This document shows, in pieces, positions 8,650 to 52,817 of a stretch of 64,000 bases of DNA. The notes under the pieces are model-generated. The model saw only the letters and a list, made by a program, of their open reading frames with translations, was not told the DNA's origin and searched no databases. Numbering within the stretch: position 1 is the stretch's first letter; the number at the start of each line of letters is the position of its first letter. Position numbers and translations under genes: made by a program. This DNA comes from Escherichia phage CMSTMSU: sequence record MH494197.1. One strand, 5' to 3'.

Positions 8650-10119
8650 CTATAGATTATTTATATAAAGGACAAGGAAGACCCACAAAGGTCTTCCCTG
8701 TTTATAATCAATCTTCAGTTTTGGCGTGAAGTCAATCTTACGTAGTTCTTTCAACTCATCTTTATAGATGTTCCAAATCAAATCATGATTCGACAGGAGA
8801 TTGTTATATTCATCCATTAAATCCAAGTTATGTTGAATATCAGCTAGTACTGATTGATAATTGTCTTGGGTCCAACGATATGATGGGAAGTTTACGATGC
8901 TTTGAATATTCTCATCGGTTGCTTCGATTTCAGTGTTTAATGATTTAACAAACTCAACCATTTCTGAACGGTTAGCAAAACCCTTAACCTTAGCAATCAT
9001 ATCATTATCAAAACATTCTTTGATTAGAATCTTATAACGTACTTCAGCAGCACAATCATCAAGTTTCTTCTCATAGCGTTTCACATAGTATTTGAAACGG
9101 AATTCAACAAAGTCCTTAATCAAATCCATTGTGTTATCATAGACTTTAACCTTACCATTCTCACCTAGAACAGTTAGGATTTGTGTCATCTTCTTATGAA
9201 TGCCAAAGTATTCAATTACATCTTTCTCCACCCATTTAGCAGATGTTCCGCGTGGTAATTTGATTGTAATATCAATAACATCAGTACTATCATTATCATA
9301 ATCACGAATATCACCATCATCGCTCATCTTAATGAGTTTCTCGATGAATTTCTCAATACTGTAGTTAGGTGGTAGACCTGTTACTTTAACAGTACTGGCA
9401 TCAATTACTTGTGCTTTACCATAGAACTCATATTTGTTTTCATCAAGCTTAGTTACGATATCACTTGCACCACATGAAACATAGTATGGAGTCATTTCTT
9501 TTAATGGTTTTTATCAATAGCACGAATACAGTTATCAATAACATCTTCAATCTTATGTGGTAGAATTGTACTCTTATAACCTACTGACATACTATCGTTA
9601 CCAAACAAAGATAGTGGGATAATAGGTAAAAAGAAACTTGGTTCCATTGTAGTACCATCATAGTTCTCTTTCATTGGAATAATGTCAGAGTCACGCAGTA
9701 CTAACATTTCAGTACTTTTATTCTTTTAACATAAGTATAACGAGCAGAAGCTGGAGTACTGTTTACTTGTGTACCAAAACCACCACGTTTACCAATGAGT
9801 GGGTAGTTGTTTACTACTGGTGATGCTAGGTTCTGGAGAGTTCCAGATGCAGATGTATCACCGTGTAGATAGATACCATCACTAATCATTTTACCAGCAC
9901 ATGATACAGTTTTGATTTCACCACTAACTTTTGAGAGGGTGAAGATTGCTTTACGTTGTGAACTCTTAAGGCCATCAATCCCGGGATTGCACGGTCTAGT
10001 GTGTACATTGAATATTCTAGTGATGTGGTATTCACATAATCAGAACTGTTATAATCTAGTAGAGTTAGTGTTTGGTTATCGATGCTTTGATTTTCGGTTT
10101 TTACTTTTAGCCATTCCAT
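8650..10119 (-). CDS. gp52: DNA topoisomerase II medium subunit (T4 gp52-like, GyrA-type)
   Basis: YSMYTLDRAIPGLMALRVHNVK at N-terminus; fragments 9886..10119, 9701..9889, 9501..9707, 8650..9495 in different frames. Confidence 0.8.
8658..8665 (-). promoter_or_regulatory. T4-type late promoter TATAAATA
   Basis: exact TATAAATA on the minus strand about 20 nt upstream of the start of gene 6880..8638, just downstream of hairpin 8676-8697. Confidence 0.4.
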
Positions 10120-12158: not shown

Positions 12159-12191
12159 TGTATCATCAATGCTTTGTTTGTCTCAAAAATA

Positions 12192-12212
12192 TCGGGACAT
12201 TAAATGCCCCGA
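12192..12212 (-). terminator. rho-independent terminator
   Basis: CGGGACAT-TAA-ATGCCCCG hairpin followed on the minus strand by ATATTTTTGAG. Confidence 0.45.
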
Positions 12213-12218
12213 CAATTA

Positions 12219-13058: not shown

Positions 13059-13715
<657 letters not shown>

Positions 13716-13728
13716 TTATATAAAGTAC

Positions 13729-14540
<812 letters not shown>

Positions 14541-24110: not shown

Positions 24111-24130
24111 ATATATTCCTTTATATTTGG

Positions 24131-24146
24131 AAAGATTAATCCGCCG
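24131..24146 (-). promoter_or_regulatory. intercistronic hairpin between nrdA and nrdB
   Basis: ATCCGC-CGAA-GCGGAT stem-loop between the nrdA stop (24161) and the nrdB RBS. Confidence 0.35.
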
Positions 24147-24160
24147 AAGCGGATCTTTAA

Positions 24161-26471
24161 TTAGATCTTACAACTATCACAATCACCTTCATCTAAGTCA
24201 GGTAGTGTAGGTAACACAAACTGTCCAGATTCTGGTTTTGCAGCTTCTTTTAGTACTTTCTCAACATCCACTTCATCAGAACCATCATTAGTATTATGAT
24301 AGTACAGATTTTTCAAACCAACTTTGTATGCATACATTAGTTCAGTTAGTAGTGTTGACATTGGCAACTTACCATCAGGAAGTGTGCTGGATTGTAACTG
24401 GTATTCACACTAATACTTTGGTCAATGTATTTCTGAAGAACACCACAGATTTGTAGATAACCGATGTTATCTTTCTGATCCCATAGTAAATCATATTTGT
24501 TTTTCAACTTATTGATTTCAGGAACGACTTGTTTAAGAATACCATCTTTAGATAGTTTCTTAGTTACAAGTGAACGAGGTTTCTCAATACCATTAGTACT
24601 GTTACTGATTTGTGCACTAGTTTCTGCTGGCATCAGTGCCATAGTTGTTGCGTTACGAATACCATATTGTTTGATATCCTGACGCAATGTTTCCCAATCT
24701 TGTTTTAGTTCAGGAGATACCAACGCATCAATATCTTCTTTATAGGTATCAATTGGTAGAATACCTTTAGCATATTTTAGTGTGTCAAAACCTTCACACT
24801 TACCTTTCTCTTTAGCAAGCTGTACAGAAGATTTAATTAGATAATAAGACCATGCTTCAGCCCACTCGTTAACTGTTTCCAATGCAGCTTCATTGTAACG
24901 CAAACCACGTTTAGCAAGGAAGTATGCAAAGTTAATGATACCAACACCTAATGGGCGATACATTTTAGTTGCACGGTCAGCATGAACTACTGGGTAGTCT
25001 TGATAATCCAATAGAGAATCAAGAGCACGTACAGAAAGATCACATGCAGTTTCCATATCTTCTGGACGATCAAAGTTGCCCCAGTTGATTGCACTCAAAG
25101 TACATAGACTAATCAAACCTTCACCAGTATTAATATCATCAAATGGCACAGATGGTAGTGCGATTTCTTGACACAAGTTGGATTGTTCAATTGGTGCAAT
25201 TGATTCAATAAAGGTTGAGTGTGTGTTTGCATGGTCAATGTTTTGAATATAGATACGACCAGTTTCTGCACGCTCAGTCATTAGAGTACTGAATACTTCA
25301 ACAGCAGATACAGATTTTTACGAATGCTTGGGTCAGCTTCATACTTCTTGTATAGCTTTTCAAATTCTTTTGGTTAGAACAGAATGCTTCATATAGTCCG
25401 GAACTTCATTAGGACTAAAGAATGTAATATTCTTGCCATCAACTAAACGTTGATATAGTGTTTTGTTCACTTGGAAACAATAGTCAAGTTGTCGAACACG
25501 GTTGAACTCAGTGCCTTTGTTATTTTTCAGTACTACAAGATTGTCAAATTCCAAATGCCACAATGGGAAGTGGACGGTTGCTGCACCACCACGTACACCA
25601 CCTTGAGAGCAGCTTTTAACGGTCTTAGCAGTTGATGCAATGAAAGGAATCAAACCAGTGTGTACTGCATCACCTGAACGAATCTCGAGTCCAGAGCACG
25701 AATGCGGCCCATATTGATACCAAGTCCAGCTTTACGGGAAATATAACGTAGGATAGCGTGGTTAGAAGAACCAATACTATCTAGACTATCTCCAACGTTT
25801 AGTACTACACAAGAACTAAACTGACGTGTATTGGTACGTAGACCAGCCATGATAGGAGTCGGGAGACTGATATCAAAGTTACTAACAGCATCATAAAACT
25901 TCTTAACATAAGACATACGTACAGAGCGATCATACTCCATAAAGATGATTGCTGCAATGGTCATATATGCCATTTGTGGAGTTTCGTAGATTTTCTTAGT
26001 TACGCGATTCTTATATAGATACTTTCCTTCCCACTGACGCATAGCAACATAAGTGAATTTATCATCACGTTTATGTTTGATGTAACGTCCAAGCTCTTCA
26101 ATTTCTTGAAGTGTGTATTTCTCAAGAATTTCTGGATCATAGATTTTTGTATCTACCATTTCTTGTAGATGTGCAGTGTATTTGATAGGGTCATAGTCGC
26201 CATACACTTGCTTACGGATACTATAATTTAGTAAGCGACCAGCAACGTATTGGTAGTTTGGTGTATCTTCAGAAATAAGTTCTGCTGCTGATTTAATCAG
26301 AATATCATGAATAGTATTGGTTTCAATACCTTCAAAGAATTGAAGTTGTGCACGAATTTCAATTTCGGAAACAGATACACCACTCAGCCCTTCGGCAGCA
26401 AAAATAAAATTTGATGGATCTTATCCAAAGATAACGGTTCTTTTTTCCATTACGCTTGGTTACGTTAATCA
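24161..26471 (-). CDS. nrdA: ribonucleotide reductase large subunit NrdA, frameshifted
   Basis: N-terminal MINVTKRNGKKEPLSLDKI, GRIYIQNIDHANTHSTF, SNLCQEIALP, C-terminal DEGDCDSCKI; fragments 25650..26207, 25360..25653, 24346..25281, 24161..24367. Confidence 0.9.
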
Positions 26472-26540: not shown

Positions 26541-27119
26541 AAGGTTTGTCCCACCCACGATATACAAATTCTATGTGGTATCCTGAATTTAAATAATCCG
26601 CATTAACTATGTCAAATTGCATATTTCCAGTACTTGAATCATAAACTGGATTACTAAACAGAATAGATAAAATTGCATCAGTACGACTTGTGTTATTCGA
26701 CTGTGCAATCATTGTTGAAGAACCAGCAGCAACAATTTGCACTGTACCTGATTCTAAAATAGTCTCATTGCTATTATACGCGATGTAGTCGATGAATACA
26801 CGACTTTCACTTTCAATAATAACTTCAACACTCTCTTGGTTTTGTGGAATGTCTACTTCAAATGGACGGTTGATGATTTTTGATACCGTTCTCCACGGTG
26901 AGAATTCGGTAATTATTTCCACGTTCTCTTTACCAGAGTTTGGATCAGTTTCCATGTACGCCCAGCAACTAAGCTTGCTGGGTCTGATGAGGAAGGTAGG
27001 CCGATGAATACACGACCCACATCAGTACTGAATCCTATCTGGCCTTTTTCCAACGCGTCTGGTAAGTCACGTTGCTTACCAGTTCTTACTTGCTGTAACG
27101 CAATTTGTTGTTGTGCCAT
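26539..27119 (-). CDS. hypothetical protein with tail-fibre-like N-terminal motif, frameshifted
   Basis: MAQQQIALQQVRTGKQRDLPDALEKGQIGFSTDVGRVFIG resembles conserved fibre N-termini; continues into ORF 26539..26955. Confidence 0.3.
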
Positions 27120-27276: not shown

Positions 27277-27720
27277 TTAGTTCTTTGGTTTTAGTGCTTC
27301 TTTGATAATATCCAAATCTTCTTTTGAAGCTTCAACACGTTCAATAACAACAACGTCTTCTTCTTCAACAACAGGTGCTAGTTCTTCAGCGATTACTTGT
27401 ACTTCTTCAGATACTTTAATTTGTTCTTCAGTATCTACTACATATGATTCGATTACTTCTGGTGCAACATTACGAGATACTTCGTCAACACTAATATCTT
27501 CAGCAATTTTCTCTTTGATTACTTCTACTGGTTTTGCACCGCGAGATTTATAATCTTTAATATTAACTAAAAGTTTATTTGAAAGTTGTAGTTTGTCAAT
27601 TTCTTCATCACTTAGTTTGATTACTTCATCTAAGGAGTAGCCTTTACTTTCTAGTGCACGAATTGTATATAGGTCTTGTTTCATTTGTTTATGCTGTTCC
27701 ATTTGATTCAATTTCTCCAC
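27277..27720 (-). CDS. acidic hypothetical protein
   Basis: ORF 27277..27789, likely start MEQHKQMKQDL; Glu/Val-rich C-terminus. Confidence 0.4.
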   Translation of the reverse strand: MEKLNQMEQHKQMKQDLYTIRALESKGYSLDEVIKLSDEEIDKLQLSNKLLVNIKDYKSRGAKPVEVIKEKIAEDISVDEVSRNVAPEVIESYVVDTEEQIKVSEEVQVIAEELAPVVEEEDVVVIERVEASKEDLDIIKEALKPKN

Positions 27721-28262
27721 GTAAAATATAGTATTGCTCAACTCTACCAATCCACATATCAACCGCATCTTTGAAGTCTTGTCCTTCAATAACGAATTCT
27801 TGATATTGTAAATTGTTAGGATCTTTTCTTACACAGATGAAAATTACACCACGCTCAATATTTGTTCCAAACATTTGATTATGCGATAGTGCATATGCAG
27901 CGATTTGCATACGGTAATTTTCGATATGTTCCCATGTCTTTAATTTACGGGAATTCTTATAGTCCATGATAGAAGGAATCCATCATGAACCCCAACTAAG
28001 TCAGTTGTTCCAGCCCATAATCCTTCATAGAATAAAGGAACTTCCTGACCCACACTTCATTGATTCTAGGCCATGCTTCTTCTTGAATTTTGTCAGCCAT
28101 TTTACGTGCCAGAACTCGTATCGGCATACCACCTTGGTGGTCAGGCTTTCCATCCAGACGATATTCTAAGTTCTCGTGCATAAAAGTACCAACAGTACAT
28201 GCTTCTAATGTAATCTCATTAGCTTTCTCTTCACCAACAAATTCTCTCCATTTTTCAACCCC
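27689..28262 (-). CDS. PD-(D/E)xK-type nuclease (tentative), frameshifted
   Basis: GTFMHENLEYRLDG, TDLVGVHDGF, KLKTWEH, QIAAYALSHNQ across three frames. Confidence 0.4.
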
Positions 28263-28417
28263 TCATTGTCAGAGGTGGCACTAAGAATTGTTGTTACTGA
28301 CGGCAGATTCCTGTTGGAGTTGAATAAAGGCGACCTTCGGGGCCGCCTTCAATTCTTTGTAATCAACGTATGTATATCTGCTAACAATTGGTGGTGTGTA
28401 CATCCGTGTACTCCTAA

Positions 28418-28772
28418 TTATAGCATCGTATTTTTGTTTGTCTCAGTTTTATTGCTTATTTGCTGCAACAGCAGCTTTTGTTGCCAATCTTCAACTTGGT
28501 CTTCAGAGTTCTGTTCAACTTCACCAGTACTTTCTGAATCATTACCAGTAAATGTTACAACATCCGAATTCGCATCTTGCACAAATGGCAAAGAGTTTAG
28601 AATATCCATCATAACATTATAAGGAACATCAATGTTGGTTCGCTTTTGATTTCAGCGATTAAAGATTGTAGGTTCACTTCTTCGCGACCCGATGATACTA
28701 AAGACAACGCAATAGTAGTAATCATATTGCGTATGTCTTTACCGAGCCTCTTCTGTAAGATCTTGAAATCTC
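28418..28772 (-). CDS. hypothetical protein, frameshifted
   Basis: ATG near 28772 (MRFQDLTEEARKD..) then ORF 28418..28612. Confidence 0.3.
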
Positions 28773-28851
28773 ATTTAGATTCATCCTTAATTATTTTTAA
28801 CGTATCCTAGTACACGTTTAACTTTCTTCTCGTTCTCAGATAGCCAAGTTT

Positions 28852-29400
28852 TCATTTCTTCTTTGTTTTGAAGAATTTAGTACCTACAGTACCGCGAACA
28901 CTTTCCATCTTAATACCAATTTGAGTTGGTTTTACAGATTCTTTCATTTCACGTTCAGTTGGTACTGGCTCAGAAATAATATCTTCTTCGAAATCAGCAT
29001 CAGCACCCATGTCGAACGTTGGGGTGTCAGCAGCAATGTCGATATCAACATCTTCACTACCAATATCAGAAACTGCTGGACCATCAGTGATATCACCAGT
29101 TAGTTTTAAAGTTTCAGTACTGATTTTGTCTTTAACATCCATTAGAGTAGTAACTGCATGTTGAAGTAGGTGGCGAACGCTATCACTAAAGTTCTGTGCA
29201 GCATCAAGACCTTGTTCCGCTTTGATACGGTCAAGTAGTGGGCCTAGAACGTCAACGCCCATGTTGTTGATTACTTCAGACTGACGTTGTAGTTTGTCAA
29301 CGATTTCACCTTTAACAGAGAGAACGATTTCAGCTTTCTCAATATTAGATTCGTTCAATTTGATGAACTTCATTGCTTCAACACGTGAAGCAGATTCCAT
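28852..29400 (-). CDS. hypothetical acidic protein (182 aa)
   Basis: intact ORF. Confidence 0.4.
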   Translation of the reverse strand: MESASRVEAMKFIKLNESNIEKAEIVLSVKGEIVDKLQRQSEVINNMGVDVLGPLLDRIKAEQGLDAAQNFSDSVRHLLQHAVTTLMDVKDKISTETLKLTGDITDGPAVSDIGSEDVDIDIAADTPTFDMGADADFEEDIISEPVPTEREMKESVKPTQIGIKMESVRGTVGTKFFKTKKK

Positions 29401-29453
29401 TAGTTTTTGTAGTTAGACATTTGAATTTCCTTATAAAATATCACTAAATTTAT

Positions 29454-29744
29454 TTACTTTATATAACCTTCACTCTTTAGAAAGTTCAGTACACGCTCTT
29501 TGAGTTTGTATGCTTCAGCTTTCTTTTCAGCGATGATGATATCTAAATCTTTTGCTTCATCGTACTTCGACTCATTCAGAACACGTTGACGTTTCTGTGC
29601 AGCCTTCAATGCTTCGGTAATTACATTGGTGTATTGTAAACCGGAACTGATGATACCAAGAACTTTTGCATCTGTCAACATTCTTCCTTCGTTGAGAAGG
29701 TTTACTAGTGTTAGTGCAGCTTCATACATCATAATATTATTCAT
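29454..29744 (-). CDS. hypothetical protein (96 aa)
   Basis: ORF only. Confidence 0.4.
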   Translation of the reverse strand: MNNIMMYEAALTLVNLLNEGRMLTDAKVLGIISSGLQYTNVITEALKAAQKRQRVLNESKYDEAKDLDIIIAEKKAEAYKLKERVLNFLKSEGYIK

Positions 29745-41959: not shown

Positions 41960-42460
41960 TTTATTCTCGATAGAAAAGGACGCGTAATGCGTCCTTATGG
42001 ATAGTTATTCTAAACGTGCATCTTCAATACCCGCAGCACGTAGTCTCACAATATTGTTTAACTGAAAAGCTTTCATCTCTAAGGATTTAACAATACTGGA
42101 AAACGTATTACGGATATATGATACTTCATTTATTAGTTCGGATAATTCACAAACTTCTTTATCACCTTCAACATACTTTTACAGTCAGAAGATGATAGTG
42201 CTCGACGATATGCTTCAAGGAAATATTTAAACTTTTCAGCTTGTAGTTGACGCATTTCAATTTCTAGCATTTCAAGTACCGCTTTAGTTCTTGAAGCTGA
42301 CTGAGACGAGTCTCATGCCAGCCGAATCTCCTGAGCAATCTTTTCAATGATGCCAATCTTTTTAACTTCACGACGAGCTTCTTCAGTTTCTTTTTCGAAG
42401 TGTTCAATCATGTCGATTATTTTAGATTTATCATCTTTGATGATCCAATGCCAAGGTTTC
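41960..42460 (-). CDS. hypothetical protein, frameshifted; UvsY-like only by position
   Basis: MKPWHWIIKDDKSKII.. with downstream fragments; lies between exonuclease and UvsX; sequence similarity not established. Confidence 0.25.
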
Positions 42461-44841: not shown

Positions 44842-50045
<5,204 letters not shown>

Positions 50046-51494: not shown

Positions 51495-51511
51495 TAAATT
51501 AAAGATAAAAG

Positions 51512-51540
51512 AAAAGGAGAGCTTTTGCTCTCCTTTTTAT
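51512..51540. terminator. strong bidirectional rho-independent terminator
   Basis: AGGAGAGC-TTTT-GCTCTCCT hairpin flanked by A-run and T-run, between convergent genes. Confidence 0.75.
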
Positions 51541-52547: not shown

Positions 52548-52785
52548 ATCAGTAACCTCCAGTGTTTGCAAACCATTTACCACGGAAATAAAGATTAGCA
52601 CCTTTATCACGGGTAAAACTTCCAACTTCATAGTCTTCTCACCATTACATTGTGGACAATCATGAGGTTCTTCACGATTGGCAATTTTACAATCTTTTCT
52701 AAACTGTGTTTACATTCTTCTTTTCACAACGATATGTATATAATGGCATTTTTGTCTTCCTTTACTTATTTTTAAATCAAAATTT

Positions 52786-52817
52786 GGGGAACTCCATGTT
52801 CCCCATTATTTATATTA
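52786..52817 (-). repeat. repeated intergenic element, copy 2: TATAAATA box plus GGGGAAC/GTTCCCC hairpin
   Basis: minus-strand sequence ATATAAATAATGGGGAACATGGAGTTCCCC, near-identical to 10134-10165. Confidence 0.6.

Follow-up and report, generated by a model that had tools for sequence, protein, structure and literature searches.

In the stretch of DNA analyzed here (64,000 nucleotides (nt) of Escherichia phage CMSTMSU, sequence record MH494197.1; hereafter the window), a GC-rich hairpin lies close to the 5′ end of a nuclease-like gene on the minus strand. A preliminary description of the window placed the gene at 27689-28348 and the hairpin 60 to 90 nt upstream of it, as a possible terminator or operator for the nuclease. 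The locus raises the question of where the hairpin lies relative to the gene, whether it is maintained in its own right, and what it might do. From the comparisons with relatives, the hairpin is best described as a previously unannotated terminator-like RNA structure inside the reading frame of an MGME1-like exonuclease gene, and its function is presumed from these comparisons.

Position and Structure of the Hairpin

The window is of the Asteriusvirus-like jumbo coliphage type (RaK2/121Q-type, phages of 345-385 kilobases (kb)), and annotated relatives were used to define the gene. By alignment to fEgEco12 and 121Q, the coding sequence occupies 27689..28403 on the minus strand, with the start codon ATG at 28401-28403 and the stop codon at 27689-27691, and it encodes 239 amino acids after correction of the frame. 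It corresponds to fEgEco12 g394 ('exonuclease', 720 nt, 239 amino acids) and to 121Q gp29. The GC-rich hairpin noted at 28326-28348 is present, and its full form extends over 28322..28355 on the minus strand (GAAUU-GAAGGCGGCC / CCGAA / GGUCGCCUUU-AUUC in mRNA sense). This site corresponds to coding positions +49 to +82, that is, codons 17-28 (R-I-E-G-G-P-E-G-R-L-Y-S), so that the hairpin is within the coding sequence instead of upstream of it. The preliminary description had held that a position inside a verified coding region would count against its proposal for the hairpin, and after frame correction this is the position found.

On the mRNA-sense strand, the full hairpin has 14 pairs and one bulge. 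Its GC-rich core (28329..28347, minus strand) is GGCGGCC-CCGAA-GGUCGCC with the loop at 28336-28340, and a U-rich tract, UUUAUUC (28322..28328, minus strand), follows directly after the core and doubles as the 3′ side of the outer helix. The folding energy of the 34-nt hairpin by itself was -17.6 kcal/mol and that of the GC core was -11.7 kcal/mol. In the 39-nt segment 28318-28356, the mRNA sense gave -19.1 kcal/mol (z = -4.65), and none of 200 shuffled sequences was equally stable. The plus-strand fold was weaker (-13.0, z = -1.9), because an A.C mismatch replaces the G.U pair of the sense strand. Thus, the RNA folding proposed as a check in the preliminary description favored the mRNA sense over the plus strand, which had been written out there.

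The window contains a single copy of the motif, with none expected by chance, and a repeated genomic element was rejected for this reason. In IMG/VR, it was found in 16 jumbo-phage contigs, once in each and always at the identical codons of the exonuclease gene. A scan of 27500-28700 with Rfam covariance models gave no match at an expectation value (E) of 1 or below, and the hairpin is annotated in none of the phage records that we inspected.

Interruption of the Reading Frame in the Window

The exonuclease frame is broken in the window by five single-base deletions on the minus strand between 27979 and 28358 (near 28358, 28311, 28255, 28051, and 27979). None of them occurs in fEgEco12 or 121Q, and four of the five are in A or G homopolymers. 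Because of these deletions, the four peptide signatures on which the nuclease had been recognized (GTFMHE, DLVGVHDG, KLKTWEH, and QIAAYA), all of them confirmed on the minus strand, fall in three different frames, and the list of open reading frames contains fragments of 40, 61, 37, and 92 amino acids instead of one gene.

The surroundings show the same pattern. The region of about 1.3 kb around the gene matched 41 phage records. The best match was Escherichia virus TH47 (99.0%), followed by fEgEco12 (98.8%), Ecwhy_1, and others at 98.6-98.9%, and identity to the 121Q group was 84.5%. In each top match, 1301 bases of the window were aligned with 1309 bases of the record. Over the whole window, comparison with fEgEco12 gave 297 deletion events and one insertion, and 218 of the 247 single-base deletions were in homopolymers. 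Judging from this comparison, the deletions are uncorrected long-read sequencing errors and not pseudogenization. If the five frameshifts were taken as they stand in the window, the nuclease gene would be a true pseudogene. However, the deletion-only pattern runs through all 64 kb, the corrected protein differs from that of fEgEco12 by a single residue (R102K; 238 of 239 identical), and the frame is intact in TH47 and nine further near-identical isolates. A biological origin of the frameshifts is thus hardly credible. By these alignments, the natural exonuclease gene is whole, and long-read homopolymer deletions alone account for its broken frame in the window. Since the deletion-only homopolymer profile extends across the window, its reading frames are unreliable without relatives for comparison; the error load fragments most of them, and such a comparison is needed before any is trusted.

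Conservation of the Hairpin at Synonymous Sites

A codon alignment was made of 14 distinct genes from Asteriusvirus, Alcyoneusvirus (RaK2), Mimasvirus (GAP32, CBB, and XbC2), and Eneladusvirus (BF and Yersinia phages), together with Salmonella phage PHA46, EJP2, and Hallingskeid. Fifteen of the 176 informative codons were codon-invariant in the 14 genes, and six of the 15 are in the hairpin arms: GAA GGC GGC (codons 19-21) and CGC CTT TAT (codons 25-27). Codon 24 was either GGT or GGC, both of which pair with G. The loop codons were free to vary (CCC, CCA, CCG, CCT, TCA, and TCT; GAA, GAT, CAA, CAG, and GAG). The arms had a pairwise synonymous difference of 0.038, compared with 0.439 for the loop codons and 0.443 for the whole gene, and no other 9-codon window of the gene was as low as codons 19-27.

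The hairpin is conserved in at least four jumbo-phage genera. CTT and TAT were unchanged in every hairpin-bearing sequence; in the PHA46 type, the U-tract is UUUAUGC. Metagenomic relatives with 60-75% protein identity kept the hairpin, the most distant of them at 60-63%, despite changes in the loop peptide (EGGLEG, EGGEIG, and EGGPLG), and in one metagenomic lineage, GGC...GGT was exchanged for GGT...GGC.

Could such a hairpin be a chance by-product, without function, of encoding E-G-G-P-E-G-R-L? The codons for Gly, Arg, Glu, and Leu are partly self-complementary, many members of the family do not have the hairpin, and the peptide of the segment varies. However, synonymous variation is about 12-fold lower in the arms only, and none of 100,000 random 7-codon sets was as conserved as the arms. 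The codons fixed there are uncommon in the rest of these genes (GGC is 7% of Gly codons, CGC 4.8% of Arg codons, and CTT 14% of Leu codons), and relatives without the hairpin use the common codons CGT, AGA, CGA, and GGT at the same Arg and Gly positions. Furthermore, five other GC-rich in-frame hairpins of the genome, taken as controls, are gone or less stable in RaK2 and GAP32, but the exonuclease hairpin keeps -19 to -20 kcal/mol. A gene-conversion tract limited to these 27 nt is argued against by the varied loop codons. A coding by-product is therefore very improbable. On the evidence of the synonymous sites, the hairpin is a selectively maintained stem-loop, and it provides a case of quantifiable selection on synonymous sites for nucleic-acid structure within a phage enzyme gene.

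Two other sources of constraint were considered and rejected. An overlapping or antisense gene does not fit, since only seven codons are constrained and the loop codons are skipped. A programmed frameshift stimulator was dropped because relatives do not retain the heptamer C AAA AGA that lies upstream.

The pairing itself was then counted over the stem. Paired cells amounted to 99.2% in 17 distinct sequences and to 98.4% in 23, six of which came from a pattern search that fixes the hairpin core; slid controls gave 35-63%. All one-sided stem changes keep pairing on the sense strand (A-U to G.U, C-G to U.G, and G.U to G-C), and eight of the 14 stem pairs never varied in the 23 sequences. Only one pair changed on both sides (columns 9-40: A-U in 16 sequences, U.G in two, C-G in one), and it was unpaired in four of the 23. 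Compensatory covariation in the outer helix, which had been perfect in the 17 sequences, was downgraded after the IMG/VR variants had supplied these four exceptions.

The five control hairpins lie in fEgEco12 g362, g366, g387, g396, and g416 (the g396 copy is at 26960-26983 of the window). With the exonuclease hairpin included, the six sense-strand GC-rich hairpins within fEgEco12 genes are all at +32 to +137 of the start, a positional bias, and each follows a short or absent intergenic gap. A general rule, by which reading frames would carry terminators within their first 140 nt, was dropped, as five of the six are not conserved in RaK2 and GAP32. In two metagenomic relatives, L101 (~735-760) and L124 (~753-787), in which there is almost no intergenic gap, other hairpins were seen at about +35 and +53 of the exonuclease gene (CCCGTCAAT...ATTGACGGG at -14.8 kcal/mol; AGATGGGGT...ACCCCATCT at -13.7 kcal/mol). 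Their placement could be convergent or due to chance.

Transcription Context

The upstream gene (28449..28774, minus strand, mapped coordinates) is the homologue of fEgEco12 g393 and 121Q gp28, a virion structural protein, and the g392 homologue precedes it at 28790-29420; the products of g392 and g393 are both annotated as virion structural proteins in 121Q, RaK2, and GAP32. A late-promoter-like motif, GTAAATA, lies upstream of the g392 homologue at 29451..29457 on the minus strand, and a second one, CTAAATA, precedes g396 downstream. In phage CBB, motifs of this class are predicted as late promoters ahead of CBB_298 and CBB_302 (PMC5259590 Table S7).

The 46-nt gap between the upstream gene and the exonuclease gene is occupied by a predicted promoter and a Shine-Dalgarno sequence. 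The latter, AGGAG (28411..28415, minus strand), was read from the sequence 7 nt before the ATG, and it carries a ribosome-binding-site annotation in UE-S1 and in Yersinia phage records. The predicted promoter (28417..28445, minus strand) belongs to the class TGAAAC-N16-TATAAT and consists of TGAGACA (28439-28445) and TG-C-TATAAT (28417-28425). A consensus scan gave GAGACA-16-TATAAT with an upstream TG, and the promoter is conserved in relatives. The class is the 'Promoter 1' class of CBB, which is linked to DNA-synthesis genes (PMC5259590), and the homologous predicted promoter of CBB, 'Porf_300' (TGAAACAATAAAAAAACATGTGCTATAAT), is directly upstream of the CBB exonuclease gene (PMC5259590 Table S6).

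The -10 box of the predicted promoter ends 13 nt ahead of the ATG. Transcription would therefore begin at the Shine-Dalgarno sequence or past it, so that the transcripts would lack this sequence, and from the position of the promoter they would meet the hairpin some 90 nt on. The other copies of the promoter class in the region are followed by longer leaders, with no comparable hairpin. In fEgEco12, these copies are at L093 10374, 19272, and 29298 and at L094 9609 (59609 in joined L093+L094 coordinates).

The Hairpin as a Proposed Terminator-like Element

The best explanation overall, to which we would give about an even chance, is an intact MGME1-like exonuclease gene with an embedded, selectively kept terminator-like stem-loop. 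We infer that the hairpin acts as RNA, and as a terminator or 3′-end element. It would give intrinsic termination or attenuation and would protect the 3′ end of the RNA. If the hairpin terminates, it would act on the transcript of the upstream virion genes or attenuate entry into the nuclease gene. With GTAAATA (29451-29457) as the proposed start, the hairpin would close the late g392-g393 transcript, and it would limit read-through into the exonuclease gene and then toward the downstream ribonucleotide-reductase genes. We propose that it is embedded in the next frame because the 46-nt gap is taken up by the promoter and the ribosome-binding site. The earlier suggestion of a terminator is thus kept in a modified form, on account of the GC-rich stem, the UUUAUUC tract, the synonymous constraint, and an intergenic terminator that replaces the hairpin in two lineages; as an element upstream of the nuclease gene it was not upheld.

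The form of the hairpin was compared with that of predicted phage terminators. In CBB, 74 terminators were predicted with ARNold (PMC5259590 Table S8). They share with the exonuclease hairpin a GC-rich stem of 7-10 pairs, a loop of 3-5 nt, and, more weakly in the exonuclease hairpin, a T-rich tail, as seen in Torf237 (GGGCATCTTCGGATGCCC-TTTATTCTT) beside the exonuclease hairpin (GGCGGCCCCGAAGGTCGCC-TTTATTCAA). The energy of the hairpin core, -11.7 kcal/mol, compares with -9.5 to -16.8 kcal/mol for the predicted terminators and intergenic hairpins examined. The U-tract has five U in seven positions, and its tail weight of 3.2-3.4 (3.6 for Torf237) is at the low end of the CBB set. Unlike the CBB terminators, the exonuclease hairpin lies in a reading frame, 100 nt past the stop codon of the upstream virion gene and 3′ of a promoter and a start codon.

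GC-rich hairpins of this kind are mainly intergenic in the annotated relative fEgEco12: intergenic DNA makes up 5% of the sequence yet holds about 16 of roughly 24 of them, most with T-rich tails (e.g., TTTATTTGTT or CTTTTATC). In the window, GC-rich T-tailed hairpins were seen at 636-663, 8672-8701, 12190-12214, 41976-41996, 48489-48514, 51511-51538, and 52785-52805. These seven map to intergenic gaps of the relative and are ordinary phage terminators, some of them bidirectional.

Syntenic relatives without the hairpin were also compared. In L096 and L100 (74% protein identity) and in Vibrio phage L092 (67%), a canonical terminator stands directly after the homologous upstream gene (ATCCCCTCTAGTAGGGGATTTTTTATT, TCCCCTCGTTGTAGGGGATTTTTTTATTT, and GCGCACCTTTGCGCTTTTTTATTG), followed by the same promoter and then by the exonuclease gene. 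In the hairpin-bearing genomes, no terminator-like (GC-rich, T-tailed) hairpin was found before the exonuclease gene in the gaps examined. In fEgEco12, no intergenic hairpin of the GC-rich class was detected for about 15 kb around the site. Similarly, no terminator is predicted in CBB from about 203.8 to 221.8 kb, a distance of about 18 kb (PMC5259590).

Several observations weigh against a terminator. The hairpin is 3′ of the predicted promoter of the exonuclease gene itself, so that an efficient terminator would also stop expression of the exonuclease, and translating ribosomes should melt the stem. The U-tract is short and interrupted. A consensus scan for terminators gave no call at the site, because the stem extension takes up the first U residues, and the ARNold table of CBB has no terminator there (PMC5259590 Table S8). 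At least four syntenic lineages (L097, L102, L103, and L123) lack both the hairpin and an intergenic terminator; therefore, the hairpin is dispensable. The complementarity between hairpin and intergenic terminator comes from two independent lineages only. Moreover, the stem is kept by sequence conservation and not by compensatory changes, which leaves room for a sequence-specific or DNA-level role. A literature search found no transcriptome for the RaK2/121Q phage group.

Terminators embedded in translated leader reading frames have precedents such as the E. coli pyrBI attenuator, and Term-seq finds RNA 3′ ends within reading frames. As in the pyrBI type, the terminator hairpin would be within a translated frame, and its formation would depend on how close the ribosome is to RNA polymerase. 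In contrast to pyrBI, the frame here is a full-length enzyme gene and not a leader peptide. If the hairpin is a terminator in a reading frame, packed jumbo-phage genomes would keep late virion transcripts apart from DNA-metabolism genes at no cost of intergenic space. The hairpin also offers an experimental handle, through synonymous changes in the stem, on the transcript architecture of this phage group.

Alternative Functions of the Hairpin

A conserved RNA structure with another role is possible, though clearly less probable than a terminator-like element. The hairpin might be a site of RNase III or RNase E processing, a barrier to decay, a cause of ribosome pausing, or the end of a short promoter-proximal transcript (translation-sensing attenuator, small RNA, or R-loop primer). 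The same synonymous-constraint and pairing data apply to such roles. In addition, the U-tract is itself base-paired in the outer A/U helix, in which one pair appears as A-U, U.G, or C-G; this suggests selection for a long helix over U-richness. The exceptions to this covariation (four of 23 sequences) and the lack of a match to an Rfam family argue in the other direction. Among the individual roles, 14 pairs are short for an RNase III site, the unconserved loop sequence argues against a protein that reads the loop, and the body of a small RNA is unlikely, as codons 1-16 are unconstrained at synonymous sites. A short transcript is favored by the spacing between the -10 box and the ATG, by transcripts that would lack the Shine-Dalgarno sequence and reach the hairpin so early, and by the longer, hairpin-free leaders of the other promoters of the class. 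In a special form of this idea, which we consider rather improbable, promoter and hairpin may together form a short transcription unit of their own that overlaps the 5′ end of the nuclease gene. Such a unit would serve as a translation-coupling attenuator, which may gate the exonuclease gene and possibly the downstream ribonucleotide-reductase genes, or as a structured promoter-proximal RNA or R-loop primer, which can be likened to the phage T4 uvsY origin. If this were true, it would be a regulatory device in the synonymous sites of an enzyme gene, common to the RaK2/121Q group.

It is unlikely, although somewhat less so than such a transcription unit, that the hairpin acts as double-stranded DNA, namely as an imperfect palindrome (AAGGCGGCC / GGTCGCCTT) recognized by a dimeric phage or host protein at an operator, a roadblock, or another site. 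Near-invariant arms with a variable spacer are what a target with two half-sites would show, true compensatory changes are nearly absent, and a small 'transcription regulator' gene, g390, is 1.7 kb upstream. However, the two permanent asymmetries, like every polymorphism, are of the G.U type when read on the sense strand (A.C on the other), and four-fold sites paired with G show C or T only. The lineages differ in loop length (5 nt or 3 nt) and in stem extension, and the site is single-copy, with no second one in the window. The evidence did not support the operator for the nuclease suggested in the preliminary description, since the loop is free to vary and the element is 55 nt downstream of the start codon. 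The G.U-type asymmetry, the restriction to C or T, and the differences in loop length speak for a role of the sense strand in single-stranded form.

The Exonuclease Protein

The corrected 239-residue protein matched the PHROGs family phrog_298 'exonuclease' (E 3.5e-62). The match to Pfam PDDEXK_1 (E 3.8e-4, 20.9 bits) is below the curated cut-off of 22, and that to NCBIfam cas4 (TIGR00372; E 3.2e-5, 23.8 bits) is below the cut-off of 65. The Pfam search of the protein gave nothing besides PDDEXK_1 and DUF2800, and YqaJ was not matched. The family comprises 1281 database proteins, many of which are called 'genome maintenance exonuclease 1' by JGI. When a profile of 40 family members was compared with all PDB sequences, human MGME1 was found over residues 32-231 (E 3.4e-16), and no other family passed.

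An AlphaFold2 model of the protein had a predicted local distance difference test (pLDDT) score of 94.3. With this model, the top nine Foldseek matches were all MGME1 (best E 7.6e-11; target-normalized template modeling (TM) scores of 0.64-0.81). The E. rectale exonuclease, RecE, Cas4, Exo5, and lambda exonuclease followed far below.

The putative active-site residues are encoded at 27893..28178 on the minus strand: H77 (28176-28178), E122 (between H77 and D136), D136 (28000-28002), D149-Y-K151 (27956-27964), Q168 (27905-27907), and Y172 (27893-27895). H77, E122, D136, D149, K151, Q168, and Y172 showed no variation among 40 homologues, and the first five align with His180, Glu223, Asp238, Asp251, and Lys253 of MGME1. 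In MGME1, His180, Glu223, Asp238, and Asp251 (metal-coordinating) are required for catalysis according to mutagenesis (PMC6237815). The phage protein thus has in common with MGME1 (PDB 5ZYT, 5ZYU, 5ZYV, 5ZYW, and 8XA9) the fold, with TM scores of 0.73-0.81 for the top matches, a full-length profile match, and the catalytic His, Glu, Asp, and Asp-x-Lys with the QxxxY motif. In the model, its long helices 59-84 and 95-114 occupy the position of the MGME1 helical arch. It differs in being a viral protein of 239 amino acids without a mitochondrial presequence, with about 21% identity, and its residues 1-31, including the segment encoded by the hairpin, fall outside the MGME1 profile match.

Other PD-(D/E)xK nucleases are more distant. 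Cas4 and the RecB/AddB-type nucleases share the superfamily and the order of motifs with the phage protein. However, the Cas4 scores are weak and below the curated cut-offs, and its structural matches are far weaker than those of MGME1. The only cysteines of the phage protein are C70 and C192, of which C192 alone is nearly invariant; therefore, a four-Cys iron-sulfur cluster as in Cas4 is absent. Lambda exonuclease and the YqaJ family have the PD-(D/E)xK core in common with the phage protein, and lambda exonuclease, RecE, and LHK-Exo are distant fold matches. TM scores of the lambda exonuclease/YqaJ type are only about 0.3-0.5, and lambda exonuclease ranks 28th (E 4e-3, TM about 0.28). With QxxxY and the helical arch, the motif pattern is of the RecB/MGME1 type, unlike that of YqaJ and lambda exonuclease.

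By profile and model, the protein is a PD-(D/E)xK exonuclease of the MGME1-like branch, with predicted enzymatic activity. The superfamily had been named correctly in the preliminary description, and profile and fold point to an MGME1, RecB, and Cas4-type relationship; the YqaJ-like assignment was not supported, since YqaJ and lambda exonuclease are only weak fold matches. The exonuclease gene as such is unremarkable: many records already annotate it, its closest solved relative is human MGME1, and the MGME1-like assignment corrects the labels 'Cas4' and 'type II restriction enzyme' that several phage records wrongly carry.

Differences in Endonuclease Genes

A further difference between the window and fEgEco12 was observed between the genes for the large and small ribonucleotide-reductase subunits. 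The 774-base-pair gene g398 ('hypothetical') of fEgEco12 is missing from the window at about 24124-24138, and an 'endonuclease' gene occupies the equivalent position in GAP32. The pattern resembles that of a mobile endonuclease gene which is present in some of these phages and absent from others. In RaK2 (24149-25882 and from 44039 onward) and in GAP32 (13156-14064), genes for homing or HNH endonucleases are also inserted, at differing points of an otherwise syntenic block of replication and virion genes.

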